A model generated the notes under the pieces. The model saw only the letters and a program-made list of their open reading frames with translations. It did no database searches and was not told the origin of the DNA. 46,313 nucleotides of DNA from an uncultured Candidatus Peribacteria bacterium (GTDB lineage Bacteria; Patescibacteriota; Gracilibacteria; Peribacterales; Peribacteraceae). Below are positions 4,785 to 37,826 of the stretch, piece by piece. The stretch is taken from contig CAZWBO010000002.1 in the NCBI GenBank assembly GCA_964632375.1, positions 1 through 46,313 on the forward strand. The letters are read 5' to 3'. Every line of letters begins with the position of its first letter. Positions within the stretch are counted from its first letter, which is position 1. The translations under genes and the position numbers were made by a program.

Positions 4785-4812
4785 TTGCTTTTCTCTTGCC
4801 TATACGTACAAT
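4785..4812 (+). promoter_or_regulatory. candidate sigma70-type promoter for rpsO
   Basis: TTGCTT (4785-4790), a 16-nt spacer, then TACAAT (4807-4812), about 90 nt upstream of the rpsO ATG. Confidence 0.4.
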
Positions 4813-4900: not shown

Positions 4901-5170
4901 ATGTCCATCAAGCGCACGCAGAAGAAGAAGATCATCAACAAGCACAAGAAGCACGAGAAAGACACCGGCTCACCGCAGGTGCAGATCGCCATCCTCACCA
5001 CCGAGATTTCGCTGCTTACAGACCACTTGAAGAACCACAAGAAGGATCATTCCGCGCGCAAAGGCTTGCTCGCGAAGGTCGCGGACAGGCGCAACCAGCT
5101 GAAGTACCTGGAAATGAACAAGCCCAACGAGTACCAGGAGGTGCTGCAGGCGCTGGGTCTCAAGAAGTAG
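4901..5170 (+). CDS. rpsO: 30S ribosomal protein S15
   Basis: 89 aa with the S15 signature TGSPQVQIAILTTEISLLTDHLKNHKKDHSARKGLLAKV. Confidence 0.95.
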   Translation: MSIKRTQKKKIINKHKKHEKDTGSPQVQIAILTTEISLLTDHLKNHKKDHSARKGLLAKVADRRNQLKYLEMNKPNEYQEVLQALGLKK

Positions 5171-5210
5171 AGAAGTTCCGATCCTGGATGTTCGTTTTCC
5201 ATTTCTCGGA

Positions 5211-5248
5211 GAAGCAGTGAGCGGACAGCGATAAGCGAGCTGCTTTTT
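5211..5248 (+). terminator. rpsO intrinsic terminator with heptamer-repeat loop
   Basis: Stem GAAGCAG (5211-5217) pairs with CTGCTT (5240-5245), followed by a T-run. The 22-nt loop is made of xxAGCGx heptamers (TGAGCGG ACAGCGA TAAGCGA). Confidence 0.55.
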
Positions 5249-5256
5249 CCTAGAAT

Positions 5257-5670
5257 TTGATTTGCATAGTCTTGCACTGTTTCTATGGAGATGTACCATT
5301 CCATCCTTTTTTTCATACTGTTCTTCCTAAGGGCTCACCATCATCTCCTACCGATGACGCATCACTGCCTTCTGCTGATGACCAGACTGTGGTCATCGAG
5401 TGCTCCATTGAAAGTCAGACAGGTCCGAGGAATAGACTTCGCATCACTTTTGACGACATTCCTGATTCAACATATTTCAGCAGATTACAGGGAGCTATGC
5501 GGTCAGCATTCGAAGGATCGAGCGTTCTGAACAATCTCGGTATCACAGATGCAGTGGCGGAAGGGGCTCGTGAGCGTCTGGGAACGAACGGCAGTTACTT
5601 CATCACAGCAAACGGGTATGAAATTCGGATGACTATCGGGCGCGTTTTGCGCGCTCCGCCTAAACGGTAA
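5257..5670 (+). CDS. hypothetical protein (low-GC insert between rpsO and pnp)
   Basis: 137-aa ORF with no recognisable motif. Composition is lower in GC than rpsO and pnp, and the start is uncertain. Confidence 0.35.
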   Translation: MICIVLHCFYGDVPFHPFFHTVLPKGSPSSPTDDASLPSADDQTVVIECSIESQTGPRNRLRITFDDIPDSTYFSRLQGAMRSAFEGSSVLNNLGITDAVAEGARERLGTNGSYFITANGYEIRMTIGRVLRAPPKR

Positions 5671-5913
5671 GAACTTTCTTTCTGTCATATGGAATCACTC
5701 TCCCCTCAACCCGGGCATGTGGTTGTCACAGTACCGAAAACGCGGGGCTGGCGATGCAAGTGAACATCCAGAAAGGAGCGTGAGGAATTGGGCGGAATTC
5801 CTTTCTCTTCAAGTAAATCAGAGTACACTTCCTCCGCTCTTTTCCTCGTCGCTCTCGTTTTGCTGGGTTTACGTCCGTGTTTCGAATAATGGTGCATATC
5901 CCTGGTTACCGTA

Positions 5914-5973
5914 GCCGCGATTCGTTATCGCGGCGGTTGATGGGATTGCACCCGCAGCGGTAACGAACCGCTG
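5914..5973 (+). promoter_or_regulatory. paired stem-loops in the pnp upstream region
   Basis: Perfect hairpins GCCGCGAT-tcgtt-ATCGCGGC (5914-5934) and CAGCGG-taacgaa-CCGCTG (5955-5973), about 110 nt upstream of pnp. In other bacteria the pnp leader carries RNase III-processed hairpins. Confidence 0.3.
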
Positions 5974-6082
5974 GTCCGGGGGGTATTATCAATCGGTATC
6001 ATCCATCGAGTCACGCATGTGAATCCAGAATTATCTCAATGAGACCTTGAGGAAATAGCAGCCATCTCTTTTTTCAGAGGAG

Positions 6083-28154: not shown

Positions 28155-28185
28155 TCTTCAATTCTCCATTTTCCATTCTCAATTT
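28155..28185. repeat. AT-rich heptamer array, right inverted repeat of the four-helix-bundle cassette
   Basis: TCTTCAATTCTCCATTTTCCATTCTCAATTT is the reverse complement of AAATTGAGAATGGAAAATGGAGAATTGAAGA. It abuts the secF stop. Confidence 0.8.
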
Positions 28186-29113
28186 ACTTCTTCTTCCTCC
28201 AGTACATCAGTATCGGCGTGGCCACGAAGAACGACGAGTACGTTCCGATGATGATGCCGAAGATGAGCGTGAGGATGAACCACTTCACGCTCTGGGGGCC
28301 GAAGAAGAGGAGCGAGAACAGCGTGAGGAGCGTGCAGAAAGTCGTGTTGAGCGTGCGGTTGAGCGTCTGGCGCAAGCTTGCCGCAGCGAGCGTCACGAAA
28401 TCTTGGTTGCTGCGTTCGACGGTGAGGTTGTGGCGGATACGGTCGAAGATGATGATCGTGTCGTTGACCGAGTAGCCGAGGATGGTGAGCAGCGCCGTCA
28501 TGAACAGCGTGTCGACTTGGAACGTGGTGTAGTGGCTGAGGATGGTGAAGATGCCCGACGTGATGAGCAGGTCGTGGAGCAAGGCCAGCACCGCGGCCAC
28601 GCCGAAGCGCATGGGGCTGTACTTGCGCGGTACGTTGCGGAACGCGAAAGCGATGTAGAGGATGATGGCGATGGAAGCGACGGCCAAGGCCATGAACGCG
28701 TGGTTCTTCAGCGTGGCGCCGACCGTGGGCCCGATGGTGGTGAACTGGCGCTCATCGAACTTGCCGAGTTGCTTCTGCAGATCCTGCGTGAACAGCACGT
28801 GCTGCTCGTTGGTGATGGGCGGCGTGCGGATGAAGTAGGTATCGGCCGTCGTCTTCGAGACTTGCGCGTGCGCAAGCGATTCCTTCAGTGCCTTCGCATC
28901 GGCTGTGTTGCCATGCGGCACAGGATCAAATCCCGTGATCGCTGTATCGAGGTCGGCTTTTACTTTGCCTTTTGGCAGCTGGATTTCCATCAGCGTTCCG
29001 CCTGTGAACTCCATGCTCATGCGGGGGCCGGGGTAGATCAGCAACACGGCGCTCGCGAGAAGGAGCACCGCAGAGACAAAGCCGAAGACACGCGTGAGGC
29101 GGATGTACGACAT
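28184..29113 (-). CDS. secF: protein translocase subunit SecF
   Basis: 309 aa with the SecF N-terminus (MEFTGGTLMEIQL) and a six-TM SecD/SecF C-terminal core (LTILGYSVNDTIIIFDRIR). Confidence 0.9.
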   Translation of the reverse strand: MSYIRLTRVFGFVSAVLLLASAVLLIYPGPRMSMEFTGGTLMEIQLPKGKVKADLDTAITGFDPVPHGNTADAKALKESLAHAQVSKTTADTYFIRTPPITNEQHVLFTQDLQKQLGKFDERQFTTIGPTVGATLKNHAFMALAVASIAIILYIAFAFRNVPRKYSPMRFGVAAVLALLHDLLITSGIFTILSHYTTFQVDTLFMTALLTILGYSVNDTIIIFDRIRHNLTVERSNQDFVTLAAASLRQTLNRTLNTTFCTLLTLFSLLFFGPQSVKWFILTLIFGIIIGTYSSFFVATPILMYWRKKK

Positions 29114-29145: not shown

Positions 29146-30645
29146 TCACAACCCGGTCTGCGCCCCTGTTCCTGCGGTGCGTTCGGCGGATGGGGCTTTC
29201 GCGATGGGCAGCGTTTCCGTGTGGAAGATGAGAACATTTCCTTCGCGCGCCACGGACCAACGCAGAGGGGCCGAGCCGTCGAACGCACGGGGCAGCAGTG
29301 TTTGCAGCAGGGTGGAGGAGAGCGGTGCGAGGGTTGATTGCAGCCACGTGGGGCTCGTCTGCCCCGCAGCGAACGTATTGCGGGGGAGTGTCCAATCAGA
29401 TTGCGGATCTCCATCGAGGAATCGTTCCAGGAACAATGCGTCATTCCCGAATAAAAAGTCGGCATCCCGCTGCGCGGTGATGAGTGAATGGCCCGTGGTG
29501 CCCCGTGTGACGAGAATCTCCCATGATCCGCGCTGCTCAGGTAACGGGTCTGATTCATTGGATCTGGCCGCGAGTCCGCGGAAGGAGAATCCCTGTTTAG
29601 CGTCAAAAGTCTTTTCGACCACTCGTGCTCCTCCCTGGCCTGCGCGCTCGCGATGCAAGCGTGTCATGATCGTTGTGAGTGACTCGGCGTTCGGTGCGGT
29701 GCCGCGAAGCACGAAGGCGCCGCCGGTAGCCGAACGCGGCCCGATGGCCAAGAGCATACCGTCTTCGAGGAGCGGCAGCAGGTCATAGGGAACGCTGATG
29801 TCGTTGCCGATGGATGCACGCACGAGGGTGGCGGCTCGCGCGTCGAGGATCATCTGCTCCTCCGGCGTCACACTTGCGCGCAGCGAACTCCAGAGCGGAC
29901 GCGGGCGGCCGACGTAGAGGATTTGCTCAGCGTTTGCTGGAATCGCGAGACTCGCATTCGGCGCGGAGAATATCGCTGCACGGGGGTTGTACGCCATCAG
30001 CGTCGGCGCGTCGGCGCGTACCGTGAGCCCCGCGTAGCGATCGATGCCGAGCAGTGCTGCGGATCGACGATCATTCGCCGAGAATGTCTGCGGCAGTCGC
30101 TGGGTGTCGATGAATGCCCATGGTTGCGTGGAGAGTTTCCCCTTGAGTGTCGCGTACGGTGCAAAGGCCGAAAGACGGTCCTTCGTGTCGGCGAGCAGAG
30201 CCGTGAGTTCCGGCTGCCCGGACGTGACGATGCCATCGCGCAGCGGCGTGCCGGCCTGGGGCGAGAGCGTGAGTGTCGCGTACTTCTGCAGGGGGAACAT
30301 CACCCAGCCGAGCGTGCCGGAGGGAAGCTGCACCAGTGCGACGTGAACCGGTTCCGTCGCGGCGGGCACCGTGTCGAGGACAGGGAAGAGGGAAGAGTAA
30401 CGATGCAGATCTGTACTCTCTCCTTGATGGAATACGGCCACGGTCGCTGCTTGCGGTAGGTACGTCGACGGAGCGAGCTGCCGGTCGGATAGTAGATAAA
30501 TACCAGTAAGCAGTGCGATGACGGCCAATGCACTGCCCGCGACGGCGAGCAGAATGGCACGGAAGCTGACGGGCAAGGTTTCGCTCATTTCGGCCATTGT
30601 AGCGAATGAATTCCATTTGTCCCGTCGACTCCAAAATGTATTCAT
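29146..30645 (-). CDS. hypothetical membrane-anchored protein
   Basis: 499 aa with a single N-terminal TM helix (ILLAVAGSALAVIALLTGIYLL) and a large extracytoplasmic domain. It is not SecD-like, because it has no C-terminal TM bundle. Confidence 0.6.
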   Translation of the reverse strand: MNTFWSRRDKWNSFATMAEMSETLPVSFRAILLAVAGSALAVIALLTGIYLLSDRQLAPSTYLPQAATVAVFHQGESTDLHRYSSLFPVLDTVPAATEPVHVALVQLPSGTLGWVMFPLQKYATLTLSPQAGTPLRDGIVTSGQPELTALLADTKDRLSAFAPYATLKGKLSTQPWAFIDTQRLPQTFSANDRRSAALLGIDRYAGLTVRADAPTLMAYNPRAAIFSAPNASLAIPANAEQILYVGRPRPLWSSLRASVTPEEQMILDARAATLVRASIGNDISVPYDLLPLLEDGMLLAIGPRSATGGAFVLRGTAPNAESLTTIMTRLHRERAGQGGARVVEKTFDAKQGFSFRGLAARSNESDPLPEQRGSWEILVTRGTTGHSLITAQRDADFLFGNDALFLERFLDGDPQSDWTLPRNTFAAGQTSPTWLQSTLAPLSSTLLQTLLPRAFDGSAPLRWSVAREGNVLIFHTETLPIAKAPSAERTAGTGAQTGL

Positions 30646-30699
30646 GACATAGTTTTATGCTTCGGCCATCGCTGTTAGTTGCGTGTTCGCTACACAGCG

Positions 30700-31290
30700 A
30701 TTACGATAACCTGATTTGTGAATGACACCCGCCACGGCCTACGGGCCCAGACAGTCTCACAAATGCACACCAACAGCCCACACAAACACAAACGCCCCGG
30801 GGCACATCCAACAACTCCTGATCCATCACATCACTGTCAGTAGAGAGAAGAGTGGCCGCATCGGTGGTTCGACACTATTCACCACCCGCGGCCCGTGCTC
30901 ACCTCTCGTTCCCTTTGGCCACCCCTCCTTGCATCCTTTGCAAACCCCTGAAGACGGAACGACACCGTGACTCCCTCAGGCGCCCTCTGTACACATCCGT
31001 GTACGTTGTGGCCACCCTCCTCTCTGCTCCGCAATACCGCACCGACGAATGCGAGCGAGCTCGATCGGTGTGTACCCCCTCCACTCCCCAGTGTCTCCCA
31101 AGAGAACTTTTCTCTTCGTGGCAGACCGGCCCGGGGACTTCGGTTGGTCCCGAGGAGAAACAAGAGACCAGAGCATTGCAGAGATCGAGGGCTCCTCCCC
31201 TCACTCGTTCTTCCGCCAACGATACAGCTCAGTGCCATTCCTCACGGAACGTCACCGATAGCCCCGGCGGGCAGACACCAAGACAAAAAA
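30700..31290. other. ~600-nt ORF-free, strand-asymmetric region (candidate large ncRNA, strand unresolved)
   Basis: There is no protein-like ORF in any frame. The plus strand is C/A-rich and G-poor (the minus strand is G/T-rich). Internal direct repeats are ACGGAACG(A/T)CACCG at 30954-30967 and 31244-31257, and TGGCCACCC(C)TCC at 30916-30928 and 31009-31020. Several local hairpins are present, for example GGGAC-ttcggttg-GTCCC near 31133-31150. Confidence 0.4.
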
Positions 31291-31315
31291 GGCCGCACTC
31301 GTTGTGGTCTTTTTT
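31285..31315. terminator. A-run/hairpin/T-run terminator
   Basis: AAAAAA-GGCCGCA-ctcgt-TGTGGTC-TTTTTT. The stem has two G-T wobbles on the plus strand, which become A-C mismatches on the minus strand, so it folds better as a plus-strand RNA. Confidence 0.5.
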
Positions 31316-31320
31316 GCTAT

Positions 31321-31365
31321 GAGTCTTGATGGGGAAGATTGCAATCTTGCAGTCTTGCATTCTTT
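31321..31365. repeat. CAAGACTG/TTGCAATC-family octamer array
   Basis: GAGTCTTGATGGGGAAGATTGCAATCTTGCAGTCTTGCATTC, abutting the stop of the TPR gene. Confidence 0.7.
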
Positions 31366-32678
31366 TATCTCATTGTCTCCACCTTCTCCCGCACCTTCTG
31401 CGCCGTCGGGTCCAACTGGAGCGCTTGCTGGTACGCGGCTGTTGCTTCGTCTTTGCGGTCGAGTGCTTCCAGGATCGTGCCGAGGAGTTCGAATGATTTT
31501 GCATCCTGCGGCCAGCGCTTGGTGGCTTTCTCGGCCGCGACGAGCGCGTCCTCCTTCCGTTGGAACCGGAGCGCCGCTGCCGTGAGCGCGGCTGTGTCGT
31601 TCAGCGTGGCGTCCTTCCGTTCGCTCAGCGCGACGTACTGGGACAGCGCGAGATCGATATTCTGCGCCTGCTCCGCCTGGTTCGCCAGAAAGGATCGTAC
31701 TTCCGTCTCGGGTTCGAATCCGTTACTGAGCGCGTACTGCGCGAAGGTGATGGCGTTCTGATGGTCGTTCGCGGCCGCGTAGGCGCGCGCGAGGTAGTAC
31801 TGCGTCTCGGGTTTTTCGGGGTCGAGCGTGTACGCTTTTTCCAGCGAGCGCAGCGCGAGGTCGTACCGCTCGGTAGTGAGCTCGCAAAACCCCTGCACGA
31901 TCCACGCGTCGCGGTAGTCGTCCTGCATGCGCGACACCTGCGCGAGCAGCGGGAGCGCGAGTTCGCACTGCTGCGTTTCGGCCAGCGCGCGCGCGAGGAG
32001 CGTGACGAGGTGAATGTCCGGGCTATCGGGGAACAGCGCGTACTCGTCGTACGCGCCCTGCAGCACTTTTGCGTACGATCGCAGGACAGGGTCCCAGCTG
32101 TTCATCACCTGCGTCAGCTCTTGCTTGGCGGCATCGTGGCTGCCCTGCACGATGCCGATGAGAGCGAGCGCGTAGTGCTTCTGGGGGGATTCCGGCGCGC
32201 CGCCGAGCAGCGTCTGAGCTTTCTGCAAGTCGCCTGCACGAATGTCGAGAATCGCTTCGAGGAGTAACACATCTTCCGGCTTCGCGCCGGCGTCTGTCAT
32301 ACGACGCATCGTGGTGCGCACGCCTTCTGCGTCGCGTCGCTGCAACTGCGCCTGCGCGAGTTTGCGGAGCGCGGGCAGGCCGCCGCCCCGCTTCACCGCT
32401 GTGCCGTACTGATCCTGCGCGGCTTTCCAATCGCCGTGCAGCGCGAGCAGATCGCCCTGCCGTAGCGCGACGAGTGCCTCGTCGCCCGCGTCGAGCGGCG
32501 TGTTGTCGAGCGGCGAGCTTACCGTAGGGGCTTGCGATCCGAACGCCTGCAGGCGTTTCTGCAACGCCAGTTCACTCTGCGTCATCTGCCACCACAAAAA
32601 TCCTACCAAACTGCCGGTGACGAGCAGGGCGGCAACGACCGGCAGCAGTATGCGGGCGGGAAGTTTCATCGGCGCCAA
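31365..32678 (-). CDS. TPR-repeat protein with N-terminal membrane anchor
   Basis: 437 aa with N-terminal TM helix ILLPVVAALLVTGSLVGFLWW, followed by repeated Ala/Leu/Tyr-rich 34-aa TPR-like units. Confidence 0.8.
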   Translation of the reverse strand: MAPMKLPARILLPVVAALLVTGSLVGFLWWQMTQSELALQKRLQAFGSQAPTVSSPLDNTPLDAGDEALVALRQGDLLALHGDWKAAQDQYGTAVKRGGGLPALRKLAQAQLQRRDAEGVRTTMRRMTDAGAKPEDVLLLEAILDIRAGDLQKAQTLLGGAPESPQKHYALALIGIVQGSHDAAKQELTQVMNSWDPVLRSYAKVLQGAYDEYALFPDSPDIHLVTLLARALAETQQCELALPLLAQVSRMQDDYRDAWIVQGFCELTTERYDLALRSLEKAYTLDPEKPETQYYLARAYAAANDHQNAITFAQYALSNGFEPETEVRSFLANQAEQAQNIDLALSQYVALSERKDATLNDTAALTAAALRFQRKEDALVAAEKATKRWPQDAKSFELLGTILEALDRKDEATAAYQQALQLDPTAQKVREKVETMR

Positions 32679-33454: not shown

Positions 33455-34429
33455 TTACGCAAGGGAGGGAAGCACCTCAATGTCCAAGTGCACGGATGAG
33501 AGTCGGCGTTGCATCTCGGTGTCTGTGAGGAGGCCGCGTTCGGCGCCGATCTGGCTGAGGACGCTGGCAGCGTTTATCGTACCTGCACGGAGGCACTTTG
33601 GCAAGTCCCAACCGGCGATCAATCCGTAGGTCATGGCGGTGCCGAAGGCGTCGCCCGCGCCGGTCGTATCCACGATGCGCTGCTGCGAGAGGACGGGGCA
33701 GGCATAGTACGATGTGCCGTCGAAAGCCGTGGCGCCGTTCGCGCCGTCGGTGATGGCGATACTGCGTGGTCCGAGAGCATGCAGCTGCGCGAACGCATTC
33801 CCCACAGTCACTTGTCCGCTGAAGGCGAGGGCTTCCTCGCGGTTTAGCAGAAGGAGATCGGTATGCGCGAGCAGCGCACGATTCTCGGCTCGGTCGATGC
33901 CGTGCGCGATCTGGTTCCCGCCAGGGTTCCACGTGAGCCCCGGTCCGCTTGGCGCGCTGAGCACGGCGATGAGGTCGTCCTCGATCATGCAACTGGCATC
34001 GTTGAGGTGGTTGAGGTAGATCCAATCGACCGACGACGCGTACGTGCGGTCGAAGGTCGTGTCGTGCAGGTGCGTGTTCGTGCCGGGCGTGTAGAAGATG
34101 ATCCTCTCGCCGCCCTGGATGTTCACGATGATGGAGAAGCTCGTCGTCTCGCCCTCCACCTGCGTGAGCGTGCCGGTGTACACGCCTTCGCGTCGCAGGT
34201 TCTGGAGCAGCGCCTCGCCCCACTGGTCGGATCCCACGATGCCGCTAAAAGCGGCGTCGCAACCGAGCCGTCGCAATCCCACGGCCGTGTTCGAGGCCCC
34301 GCCGCCGCACGCTTCCGTCACATCGCGCACCGGCACTTTACAGCCCGGCGCGATGTCTGTGAGCAGATGCTCCGTGTGGACGAAGAGATCGAAGGTGGCG
34401 CCGCCGATGGAGAGAGTGCGAGGGGACAC
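33455..34429 (-). CDS. PfkB-family carbohydrate kinase
   Basis: It has the ribokinase-like signature DTTGAGDAFGTAMTYGL near the C-terminus and a GG motif near the N-terminus. The ORF-track start at 34528 is encoded by the AT-rich repeat, so I prefer the in-frame GTG at 34429. The start remains uncertain. Confidence 0.8.
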   Translation of the reverse strand: MSPRTLSIGGATFDLFVHTEHLLTDIAPGCKVPVRDVTEACGGGASNTAVGLRRLGCDAAFSGIVGSDQWGEALLQNLRREGVYTGTLTQVEGETTSFSIIVNIQGGERIIFYTPGTNTHLHDTTFDRTYASSVDWIYLNHLNDASCMIEDDLIAVLSAPSGPGLTWNPGGNQIAHGIDRAENRALLAHTDLLLLNREEALAFSGQVTVGNAFAQLHALGPRSIAITDGANGATAFDGTSYYACPVLSQQRIVDTTGAGDAFGTAMTYGLIAGWDLPKCLRAGTINAASVLSQIGAERGLLTDTEMQRRLSSVHLDIEVLPSLA

Positions 34430-37751: not shown

Positions 37752-37826
37752 TGGAGGTGCTGGTGGGAATTGCACCCACGTATGGGGGTTTTGCAGACCC
37801 CTGCCTTACTACTTGGCTACAGCACC
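37752..37826 (-). tRNA. tRNA-Cys (GCA), CCA-encoded
   Basis: The minus strand reads GGTGCTG-TA-GCCAAGTAGTAAGGC-A-GGGGT-CTGCAAA-ACCCC-CATAC-GTGGG-TGCAATT-CCCAC-CAGCACC-T-CCA. It has a 7-bp acceptor stem, a 5-bp anticodon stem, anticodon GCA and discriminator U73 (a tRNA-Cys identity element). The 13:22 A-A mismatch matches E. coli tRNA-Cys. Confidence 0.9.

Follow-up and report, generated by a model that had tools for sequence, protein, structure and literature searches.

What kind of gene, if any, fills the roughly 600 nucleotides (nt) between two leftward genes of an uncultured Candidatus Peribacteria bacterium in which no convincing protein can be read? The question is raised by positions 30700-31290 of contig CAZWBO010000002.1, analysed here over 46,313 nt (hereafter the window, meaning this whole stretch), which has a G+C content of 59% and whose closest relatives are metagenome-assembled genomes of Candidatus Peribacteria, ultra-small members of the candidate phyla radiation (CPR). 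A first-pass annotation, made from the letters alone, had proposed a large structured non-coding RNA (ncRNA) at this place. Our answer, which we hold with more confidence than doubt, is that the region encodes, as a gene complete in itself, a large structured ncRNA of an undescribed family, so far seen only in some Peribacteria. The RNA would measure about 600 nt here and, by our estimate, 0.45-0.75 kb in relatives. It is new at the level of the RNA family only; stand-alone structured ncRNA genes are already known as a general kind.

Nothing in the region reads as a protein gene. The three-base periodicity of G+C is lost from about 30600 to 31320, and the interval 30646-31364 carries no coding signal. 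Open reading frames (ORFs) of 82-156 amino acids (aa) are present on both strands, and their frames are not kept between the window and its closest relative, contig CAZTYD010000041 (L001 below), against which two single-base insertions or deletions shift all frames amid otherwise identical DNA. Six-frame translation of the region, which would also have caught spurious ORF calls made over the RNA in other assemblies, matched none of 5.8 billion proteins, and no intact protein gene was found at this position in relatives. The description of the stretch as ORF-free, with no coding bias at third positions, is thus confirmed. It had also been called the longest non-coding stretch of the window, which is uncertain: the rpsO-pnp spacer (5171-6082) reaches a similar length provided that the doubtful 137-aa ORF within it, at 5257-5670, is spurious. 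That spacer has no Rfam match at gathering score.

Relatives point to an RNA. We analysed eight copies, the window and seven homologous contigs of Peribacteria, which represent six to seven lineages (window, L001, L002, L010, L013/L014, L015, L016/L017 and L020/L021). The TPR protein encoded next to the region has more than 450 orthologues in Peribacteria and Peregrinibacteria, and the contigs of selected orthologues supplied L010, L013/L014, L015, L016/L017 and L020/L021. L002 was recovered from a microbial mat by a scan that used a back-translated, stop-free frame of the RNA with variable positions masked, with six conserved stretches per metagenome scan. Between the window and L001, the DNA is mostly identical from 31275 to 30840, and the differences are grouped in a few hairpins, where several substitutions are compensatory (for example, GUACAC..GUGUAC versus GCACAC..GUGUGC); the proteins encoded by X, the gene on the other side of the region, are 73% identical. 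A conserved core of about 250-270 nt is nearly invariant in L002, although SecF is 54%, TPR 47% and X only 27% identical there. A 24-nt invariant motif that spans the loop of a pseudoknot, and that reads GGTYTCTTGTTTCTCCTCGNNACC on the minus strand, occurs once in every RNA-bearing locus and in none of nine other loci. The alignment with relatives that had been recommended as a check therefore bears out the proposal of a large structured ncRNA, with seven homologues, conservation beyond that of the neighbouring proteins, and compensatory changes across the eight sequences.

The pattern of substitutions shows a conserved, covarying, pseudoknotted fold with at least nine predicted helices (Table 1). 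Columns were scored on the eight-sequence alignment in plus orientation, for those helices with in-register columns only. Standard pairs fill 97.6% of the cells, against 39-52% when the partners are slid by one to three columns; nine pairs (19 cells) have changed on both sides, and the covariation score was reached by none of 500 shuffles, a control that ignores the relatedness of the sequences. An earlier version of the structure, drawn in the opposite orientation, had 93.7% of its cells paired against 45-51% in the control. Across these sequences, compensatory substitutions thus exceed the controls, which is the generic mark of a structured ncRNA.

Individual helices illustrate this well. 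In stem S1 of the pseudoknot, a C-G pair becomes U-A in three sequences and a second position switches between U-A and G-C; in stem S2, G-C becomes U-A in two sequences. P3 changes from GAGGG/CCCUC to GAGGA/UCCUC, P6b occurs as GUCU/AGAC, GUUU/AAAC or GUUC/GAAC, and Ha as CCUCC/GGAGG or CCGCC/GGCGG. Ha, P7, P8, P9 and the terminator hairpin T0 were counted by hand because their MAFFT registers (junction lengths) differ between lineages. In P7, P8 and Ha, 131 Watson-Crick and 3 G.U pairs account for all 134 cells, with turnover that is complete or compensated; when P9 is counted as well, 179 Watson-Crick and 5 G.U pairs account for all 184 cells, with strands almost wholly replaced. A further tertiary pairing is possible between the conserved box (CUUCACA) and the internal loop of P8 (UGUGAGG): by hand it fits six of the eight sequences, and in L016 it would be retained through G.U, on the plus strand only.

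Several candidate helices were given up along the way. Ha took the place of the window's P2 (UCGUU/AACGA), and 'Option B' (GGGAC/GUCCC) was dropped, after more sequences had been added; P4c conflicts with pseudoknot stem S1; P5a (UCUCC/GGGGG) meets UUUU without compensation in L020; and the last two pairs of P6 were removed.

Whether this RNA is a gene of its own or a part of a neighbour's transcript can be read from its changing surroundings. The examined loci share a conserved order of genes for an fn3/Big protein, PfkB, a protein of about 200 aa, TPR, X, SecF, trigger factor and RelA. The module sits between TPR and X in the window clade, in L002 and in the P0062/P0089/P0078/P0080/P0094 clade, and is missing from four other lineages, in which TPR and X lie 0-92 nt apart. 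In L002 the entire module points the other way with respect to TPR and X, with an extra 114-aa ORF beside it; in L015 it is the TPR gene that is inverted and divergent from the module; and in L020/L021 TPR is separated from the module by a gene with a NYN domain and one of 227 aa (227/234-aa genes). Gene X has a -10 box (TACAAT, TAGAAT or TAGCAT) 7-11 nt ahead of its start codon, downstream of the RNA module. The inverted and rearranged contexts, the absence of the module at orthologous TPR-X sites and the -10 box that belongs to X itself together indicate that the module is not the leader, riboswitch or 3' untranslated region (UTR) of a neighbour. It is a movable, self-standing unit with sharp borders. 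What is expected of a stand-alone gene is present at the level of sequence: a promoter motif in 8/8 copies, a strand-specific terminator in 8/8, and persistence through inverted and rearranged contexts.

The intergenic site between TPR and X is a rearrangement hotspot (L002 2367-2711, L015 1639-2500, L020 5947-7564 and L021 1545-3306). Assemblies also tend to break at the RNA, as in the run of N in L017 (3578-3677) and in the L001 contig, which starts just upstream; such breaks might arise where strains differ in the hypervariable domain, or from an inversion polymorphism. L003/L004, sister of the window clade, end 220 nt after TPR (5303-5524), and the one feature seen there is a box-like GUGAAGGGGAUC on the opposite strand.

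On which strand, then, does the RNA lie? The motif TTGCNN-N16/17-TA(C/T)(G/A)AT precedes all eight copies, and ATTTG always follows 6 nt after the -10 box, so that the 5' stem-loop Hd (GAUUUG) starts 5 nt past it; in the inverted L002, the motif has moved together with the module. The pattern was found three times in the window against 0.28 expected, an approximately tenfold excess, and TTGCNN-N16/17-TAYRAT suggests a promoter consensus of Peribacteria. Its other two matches are at 4785-4812 (+), about 90 nt upstream of the gene for ribosomal protein S15, rpsO (4901-5170), and at 33576-33604 (-), inside the 3' part of pfkB and upstream of the genes for the 201-aa and TPR proteins. The conserved box was also considered as a -35 element, and no conserved -10 follows it when the sequences are read by hand.

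At the other end, the terminator hairpin T0 is more stable on the C-rich plus strand in all eight homologues. The first-pass annotation had already noted that this combination of A-run, hairpin and T-run folds better on the plus strand, and our values for the window agree (-7.8 kcal/mol on plus, -1.5 on minus). Its basal pairs are G.U on the plus strand and A.C mismatches on the minus strand in 7/8 copies, and three copies have GNRA loops on the plus strand. T0 has stayed with the module in the inverted L002 and in the rearranged L015 and L020. In the opposite direction the copies share no promoter-like site, and in L010, L013 and L016 only 8-20 nt separate the TPR stop codon from the module, too few to accommodate one.

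Base composition does not settle the strand. The plus-strand GC skew of the region is -0.10 to -0.37, its flanks are positive, and the body has 0.36 G and 0.24 C on the minus strand, so the extreme asymmetry reported at first is real in the window; it is not a trait of the family, as G and C are about equal in L010, L013 and L020, whose two strands fold about equally well. Folding energies and z-scores are confounded by composition and mixed across homologues, and the energies of the Hd stem-loop are mixed too. In the proven helices, the plus strand would have 9 G.U and 5 A.C cells, which favours neither strand. The lineage-specific skew, this neutral count and the conserved, strand-specific promoter and terminator together lead us to place the RNA on the plus strand of the window, at about 30713-31316; on these sequence features we think that placement probable. 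The initial preference for the G/U-rich minus strand as the sense strand is thus probably wrong, and the caution that accompanied it, namely that the strand was unresolved and the terminator favoured plus, was well placed.

Several observations weigh against our reading, and some of them also make up the case for an alternative that we consider possible and less probable than not: that the family is the same and its functional molecule is the G-rich minus strand, from about 31285 down to 30790, with the plus transcript an antisense partner or noise. Such an RNA would arise by read-through from TPR or from an unrecognized promoter and would end at the GC palindrome and U/G-rich tract. In the window, L001, L002 and L015, the G-rich minus strand gives the more stable fold by 20-40 kcal/mol (-198.4 against -157.8 kcal/mol in the window), and over the whole body it has the lower folding energy in 7/8 homologues; G exceeds C on it in 5/8. 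A first hand count of G.U against A.C (19 vs 4) favoured it as well, an excess owed mostly to helices without compensatory support, and to P9. The P1 hairpin of the window has a GNRA loop (GUGA) on that strand, and the GC palindrome with its U-rich tract resembles a minus-strand terminator in some copies, such as L013, where UUUUUU follows it; the palindrome of the window was likewise marked as terminator-like. On the promoter side, the -35 box matches the Escherichia coli consensus at 3/6 positions and a promoter scan did not report the site; the promoter, the start site, the use of the terminator and the strand are all deduced from sequence. The fold itself was derived from only eight sequences of six to seven lineages, part of it chosen on the same sequences; L020 has UUUU for the GGGG run plus a few extra mismatches; and, among the predicted helices, P5a and the end of P6 are probably mistaken.

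What tells against a minus-strand RNA is the lack of a conserved promoter-like site, or of room for one in L010, L013 and L016, and the fact that read-through is no general source of a transcript, since L002, L015 and L020 do not have the module downstream of TPR. The hairpin at the would-be 5' end suits the other strand, the skew is absent from L010, L013 and L020, and the compensated helices pair equally on both strands. A further role of the GC palindrome and its U-rich tail may be to stop minus-strand read-through from TPR. Among explanations that do away with a free-standing cellular RNA, cargo or a remnant of a mobile element, in which the RNA would serve the element and not the cell (as HEARO/omega RNAs, bridge RNAs and retron RNAs do), seems improbable to us. 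The patchy distribution, the sharp borders, the two orientations at a hotspot where small genes come and go, and the breaks or gaps of assemblies at the module all speak for it. Pfam annotation of the neighbours in the eight loci, on the other hand, shows no more than TPR, X, SecF, trigger factor, PfkB and, in a single lineage, a protein with a NYN domain; genes for a transposase, recombinase, reverse transcriptase or nuclease are absent beside the module, as are those for TnpB/IscB and an IS110 recombinase. The module is always at the same chromosomal site, in one copy per locus. Pattern scans of viral contigs with the double repeat, the pseudo-protein patterns and the invariant 24-mer gave no match, nor did blastn against phages and plasmids, and the divergence of the peripheral helices loosely follows that of the host proteins, in keeping with vertical inheritance and losses.

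A cis-regulatory role, as the 5' leader or riboswitch of X and secF-tig or as the 3' UTR of TPR, is very unlikely. Its appeal is positional, with the module directly upstream of X in 7/8 loci and starting within about 50 nt of the TPR stop in L010, L013, L016 and the window; it conflicts with the inversion relative to both genes in L002, the divergent TPR in L015, the -10 box just before the start codon of X, the terminator and palindrome that intervene, the orthologous TPR-X pairs that lack the module, and the promoter and terminator that the module seems to have of its own. Hardly credible at all is a decayed protein gene, or an unusual Pro/Arg/Ser-rich protein: the ORFs on both strands are offset by the missing codon periodicity, the frame-shifting differences amid identical sequence and the lack of a homologue in any frame, and the substitutions follow base pairing, not codons, with a variable domain that is unalignable between lineages.

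One further possibility, an RNase P RNA that has diverged very far or some other housekeeping RNA (transfer-messenger RNA (tmRNA), signal recognition particle (SRP) RNA or 6S RNA), leads to the comparison with known families, and we rate its chance as very slight. The size would fit such an RNA of 400-600 nt, and the strings GAAGUCCCCGG, GGUGCGGUA and GCAAGG..GGCCAAAGGG resemble conserved regions of RNase P RNA in the right order. The resemblance dissolves on inspection: covariance models of RNase P RNA (RF00010/RF00011, and archaeal RF00373) do not match the window, L001, L002 or L010, and only one of the look-alike strings is conserved in the family. Of those first listed, GAAGTCCCCGG is conserved family-wide, whereas GGTGCGGTA and GCAAGG..GGCCAAAGGG are non-conserved or lineage-specific, and CCCCGGGGCGTTT is the GC palindrome outside the core. 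In the same vein, GGUGCGGUA corresponds to the 3' side of P8 in the form peculiar to the window, CCCCGGGGCGUUU to the GC palindrome and GCAAGG..GGCCAAAGGG to part of the lineage-specific domain; GAAGUCCCCG alone is conserved in the family. That last string pairs locally (P5'/P6) and forms no long-range P4; among the P4 strings CGAAGUCCCCG alone is conserved, and it pairs locally in P5'/S2 and P6. The universal P4 strands of RNase P (GGAAAGUCC ... ACAGAA..GGCUUA) form no long-range helix in the family, and the string ACAGACCGGGUAGCG occurs only in an insertion specific to L001, with no conserved ACAGAA..GGCUUA partner. RNase P RNA does share with the present RNA a similar length, a GAAGUCC-like string and a variable peripheral domain in a conserved core. 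Absence or inversion at a conserved site is not what one expects of a housekeeping RNA, though its gene might be located elsewhere in the genomes concerned.

The recommended search of all Rfam families, made on both strands, produced no relative. With Rfam 15 (4227 models), cmscan of the whole window at gathering score gave no match in the studied region, and a search of 30500-31450 and of L001, L002 and L010 at E<=10, both strands, gave no family match beyond chance level. The only hits at that threshold in the region, to a microRNA model, the Thr leader and DnaX, are at chance level and lie on the terminator or outside the core; Infernal aligned T0 to the terminator of the Thr leader model. 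The models of OLE, GOLLD, ROOL, raiA, HEARO, 6S and SRP RNA had no match at E<=10 in these four homologues, nor did RNase P or tmRNA on either strand, and ARAGORN found no tmRNA in the window. The only RNA gene of the window recognized by both Rfam and ARAGORN is a tRNA-Cys (GCA) at 37752-37826 (-).

Our literature searches brought up no account of an RNA of this kind from Peribacteria or CPR; three papers (PMC12286853, PMC9723947 and PMC11706538) deal with large orphan structured ncRNAs of bacteria. The present RNA has no sequence or structure match to OLE, GOLLD, ROOL, raiA or HEARO and differs from them in its host, Peribacteria. Like it, these RNAs are several hundred nt long, have many covarying helices with conservation in loops and junctions, come from stand-alone genes, have a narrow, patchy range, and do not reveal their function in their sequence. 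Their typical partners are oap genes for OLE, a prophage or plasmid for GOLLD and ROOL, and IS605-type genes for HEARO, and none of these lies beside the module. A different comparison is with the UCCC-motif Rsa RNAs of Staphylococcus, which are C/U-rich regulatory RNAs that mask Shine-Dalgarno sequences. By analogy, the present RNA resembles them in the exposed CUCCUC/CACCUC of the P3 loop and in its putative own promoter and intrinsic terminator, whereas it is 5-10 times larger and has a pseudoknotted conserved core for which base-pairing small RNAs have no need.

Table 1. Features of the proposed RNA gene, in window coordinates and plus-strand reading; promoter, terminator and helices are predictions from the eight copies.
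Feature	Position	Strand	Conservation or remark
Putative -35 box TTGCGT	30679-30684	+	TTGCNN 16-17 nt upstream of the -10 box in 8/8; spacer not conserved
Putative -10 box TACGAT	30702-30707	+	TA(C/T)(G/A)AT in 8/8
5' stem-loop Hd, outer stem AUUUGUGA/UCACAAAU	30713-30765	+	GAUUUG...CAAAUC in 8/8; interiors of 25-65 nt differ
Hd inner hairpin GGCCUACGGGCC	30736-30747	+	
CA-rich linker (UG-rich on minus)	30766-30793	+	Comparable (CA)n/(UG)n tract flanks the body in all homologues
Loop-less GC palindrome GCCCCGGGGC (T1)	30794-30803		G/C palindrome here in all homologues
Conserved box GAUCCAUCACAUCAC, family consensus GAUCCUUCACACCAU	30820-30834	+	8/8; adjoins the variable domain
Stem P9	30842-31025 (30842-30857 with 31010-31025)	+	Closing stem in every homologue; distal sequence differs
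Hypervariable domain within P9	30858-31009	+	Unalignable between lineages
Conserved core	31021-31273	+	Helix pairing on eight homologues
P4, two possible registers	31021-31038 with 31172-31184	+	
P8, conserved internal loop AUGUGAGG	31040-31070	+	
P6	31085-31089 with 31133-31137	+	
P6b	31093-31096 with 31123-31126	+	
P7	31100-31116	+	
H-type pseudoknot	31140-31171	+	S2 31140-31143 with 31150-31153; S1 31144-31149 with 31166-31171
Invariant purine-rich 12-nt loop GGAGAAACAAGA of the pseudoknot	31154-31165	+	
P3	31187-31202	+	
Ha, enclosing P1	31213-31217 with 31266-31270	+	
P1 hairpin	31229-31258	+	
Intrinsic terminator T0, AAAAAA-GGCCGCA CUCGU UGUGGUC-UUUUUU	31285-31315	+	Accompanies the module in every arrangement

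The palindrome T1 reads GCCCCGGGGC, CCGGGGCCCCGG, GGGGGCCCCC or GGCUCCGGAGCC among homologues; it is on the minus strand that it was flagged as terminator-like in the window, and a clean U-run follows it on that strand only in L013. The hypervariable domain is shortest in L010 (about 45 nt) and longest in L002 (about 190 nt), and it contains long AU-rich hairpins in L013, L015, L016 and L020. A second CA-rich stretch separates the core from T0. Two sets of direct repeats had been singled out at first. Both copies of ACGGAACGwCACCG, at 30954 and 31244, are indeed present, but the repeat is conserved only in the window and L001 and its two hits with up to two mismatches are not above chance (0.87 expected). 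The pair TGGCCACCC(C)TCC at 30916 and 31009 was seen by eye in the sequence only. The repeats at 30916/31009 and 30954 fall in P9 and the hypervariable domain.

The genes on either side of the region are on the minus strand, as described at first: TPR at 31365-32678 and X at 29146-30645, followed by secF and then by tig, the trigger factor gene. The TPR protein has one N-terminal membrane helix, as does X, a protein of 499 aa without a Pfam domain. X evolves fast, with 27-73% identity between lineages, and a homologue search found only two database members. It occupies the position expected of secD, directly upstream of secF (28184-29113, -), and no SecD-like gene is visible in the examined loci. 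A -10 box TACAAT at 30601-30596 (-) lies a few bases ahead of in-frame ATGs of X at 30597 and 30588, and the same spacing of -10 box to ATG (TAGCAT, TAGAAT or TACAAT; 9-11 nt) recurs in L010, L013 and L015. Gene X appears to be leaderless or nearly so, and the start annotated for it, 30645, probably lies too far upstream. A perfect 14-nt palindrome, AAGATTGCAATCTT, occupies 31335-31348 (+), between the stop codon of TPR and the terminator of the RNA, and there are further TTGCAAT/TTGCATT repeats; these are common to L001 (40-90) and not to other lineages, and the palindrome may, from its sequence, be a protein-binding site.

How might such a gene work? Transcription would proceed on the plus strand from a sigma70-type promoter of its own (-35 at 30679, -10 at 30702), the transcript would open with a protective 5' stem-loop at about 30713, and it would end at the intrinsic terminator at 31285-31315. 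The concentration of conservation in loops, junctions and the pseudoknot leads us to speculate that the RNA, once folded, works in trans, whether by scaffolding a ribonucleoprotein, by catalysis or by binding a ligand, and not as a simple antisense regulator. The P3 loop, which reads CUCCUC(C) or CACCUC(C) on the plus strand, is one of several exposed C/U-rich stretches, and CUCCUC/CACCUC(C) resembles the 3' end of 16S rRNA (the anti-Shine-Dalgarno sequence); by that analogy, and more speculatively, the C-rich loops might bind purine-rich, Shine-Dalgarno-like ribosome-binding sites.

Large bacterial RNAs with complex conserved folds are rare and, to our knowledge, every one characterized so far (RNase P, group I/II introns, OLE, ROOL and GOLLD) has proved to have unusual biochemistry. 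CPR bacteria, with their tiny genomes of about 1 Mb, resist cultivation on their own, and their biology is poorly understood. The eight sequences, a testable secondary structure, a 24-nt signature and a clear strand question now form a resource for further study. We think it likely that the RNA described here is the founding member of a new, Peribacteria-specific class of large pseudoknotted RNAs with a complex tertiary core and hence a biochemical role, for instance as a ribozyme, as a scaffold for a ligand or protein, or in binding ribosomes or mRNA; in a CPR bacterium, a conserved 600-nt pseudoknotted RNA gene with what appear to be its own promoter and terminator is unlikely to be idle.

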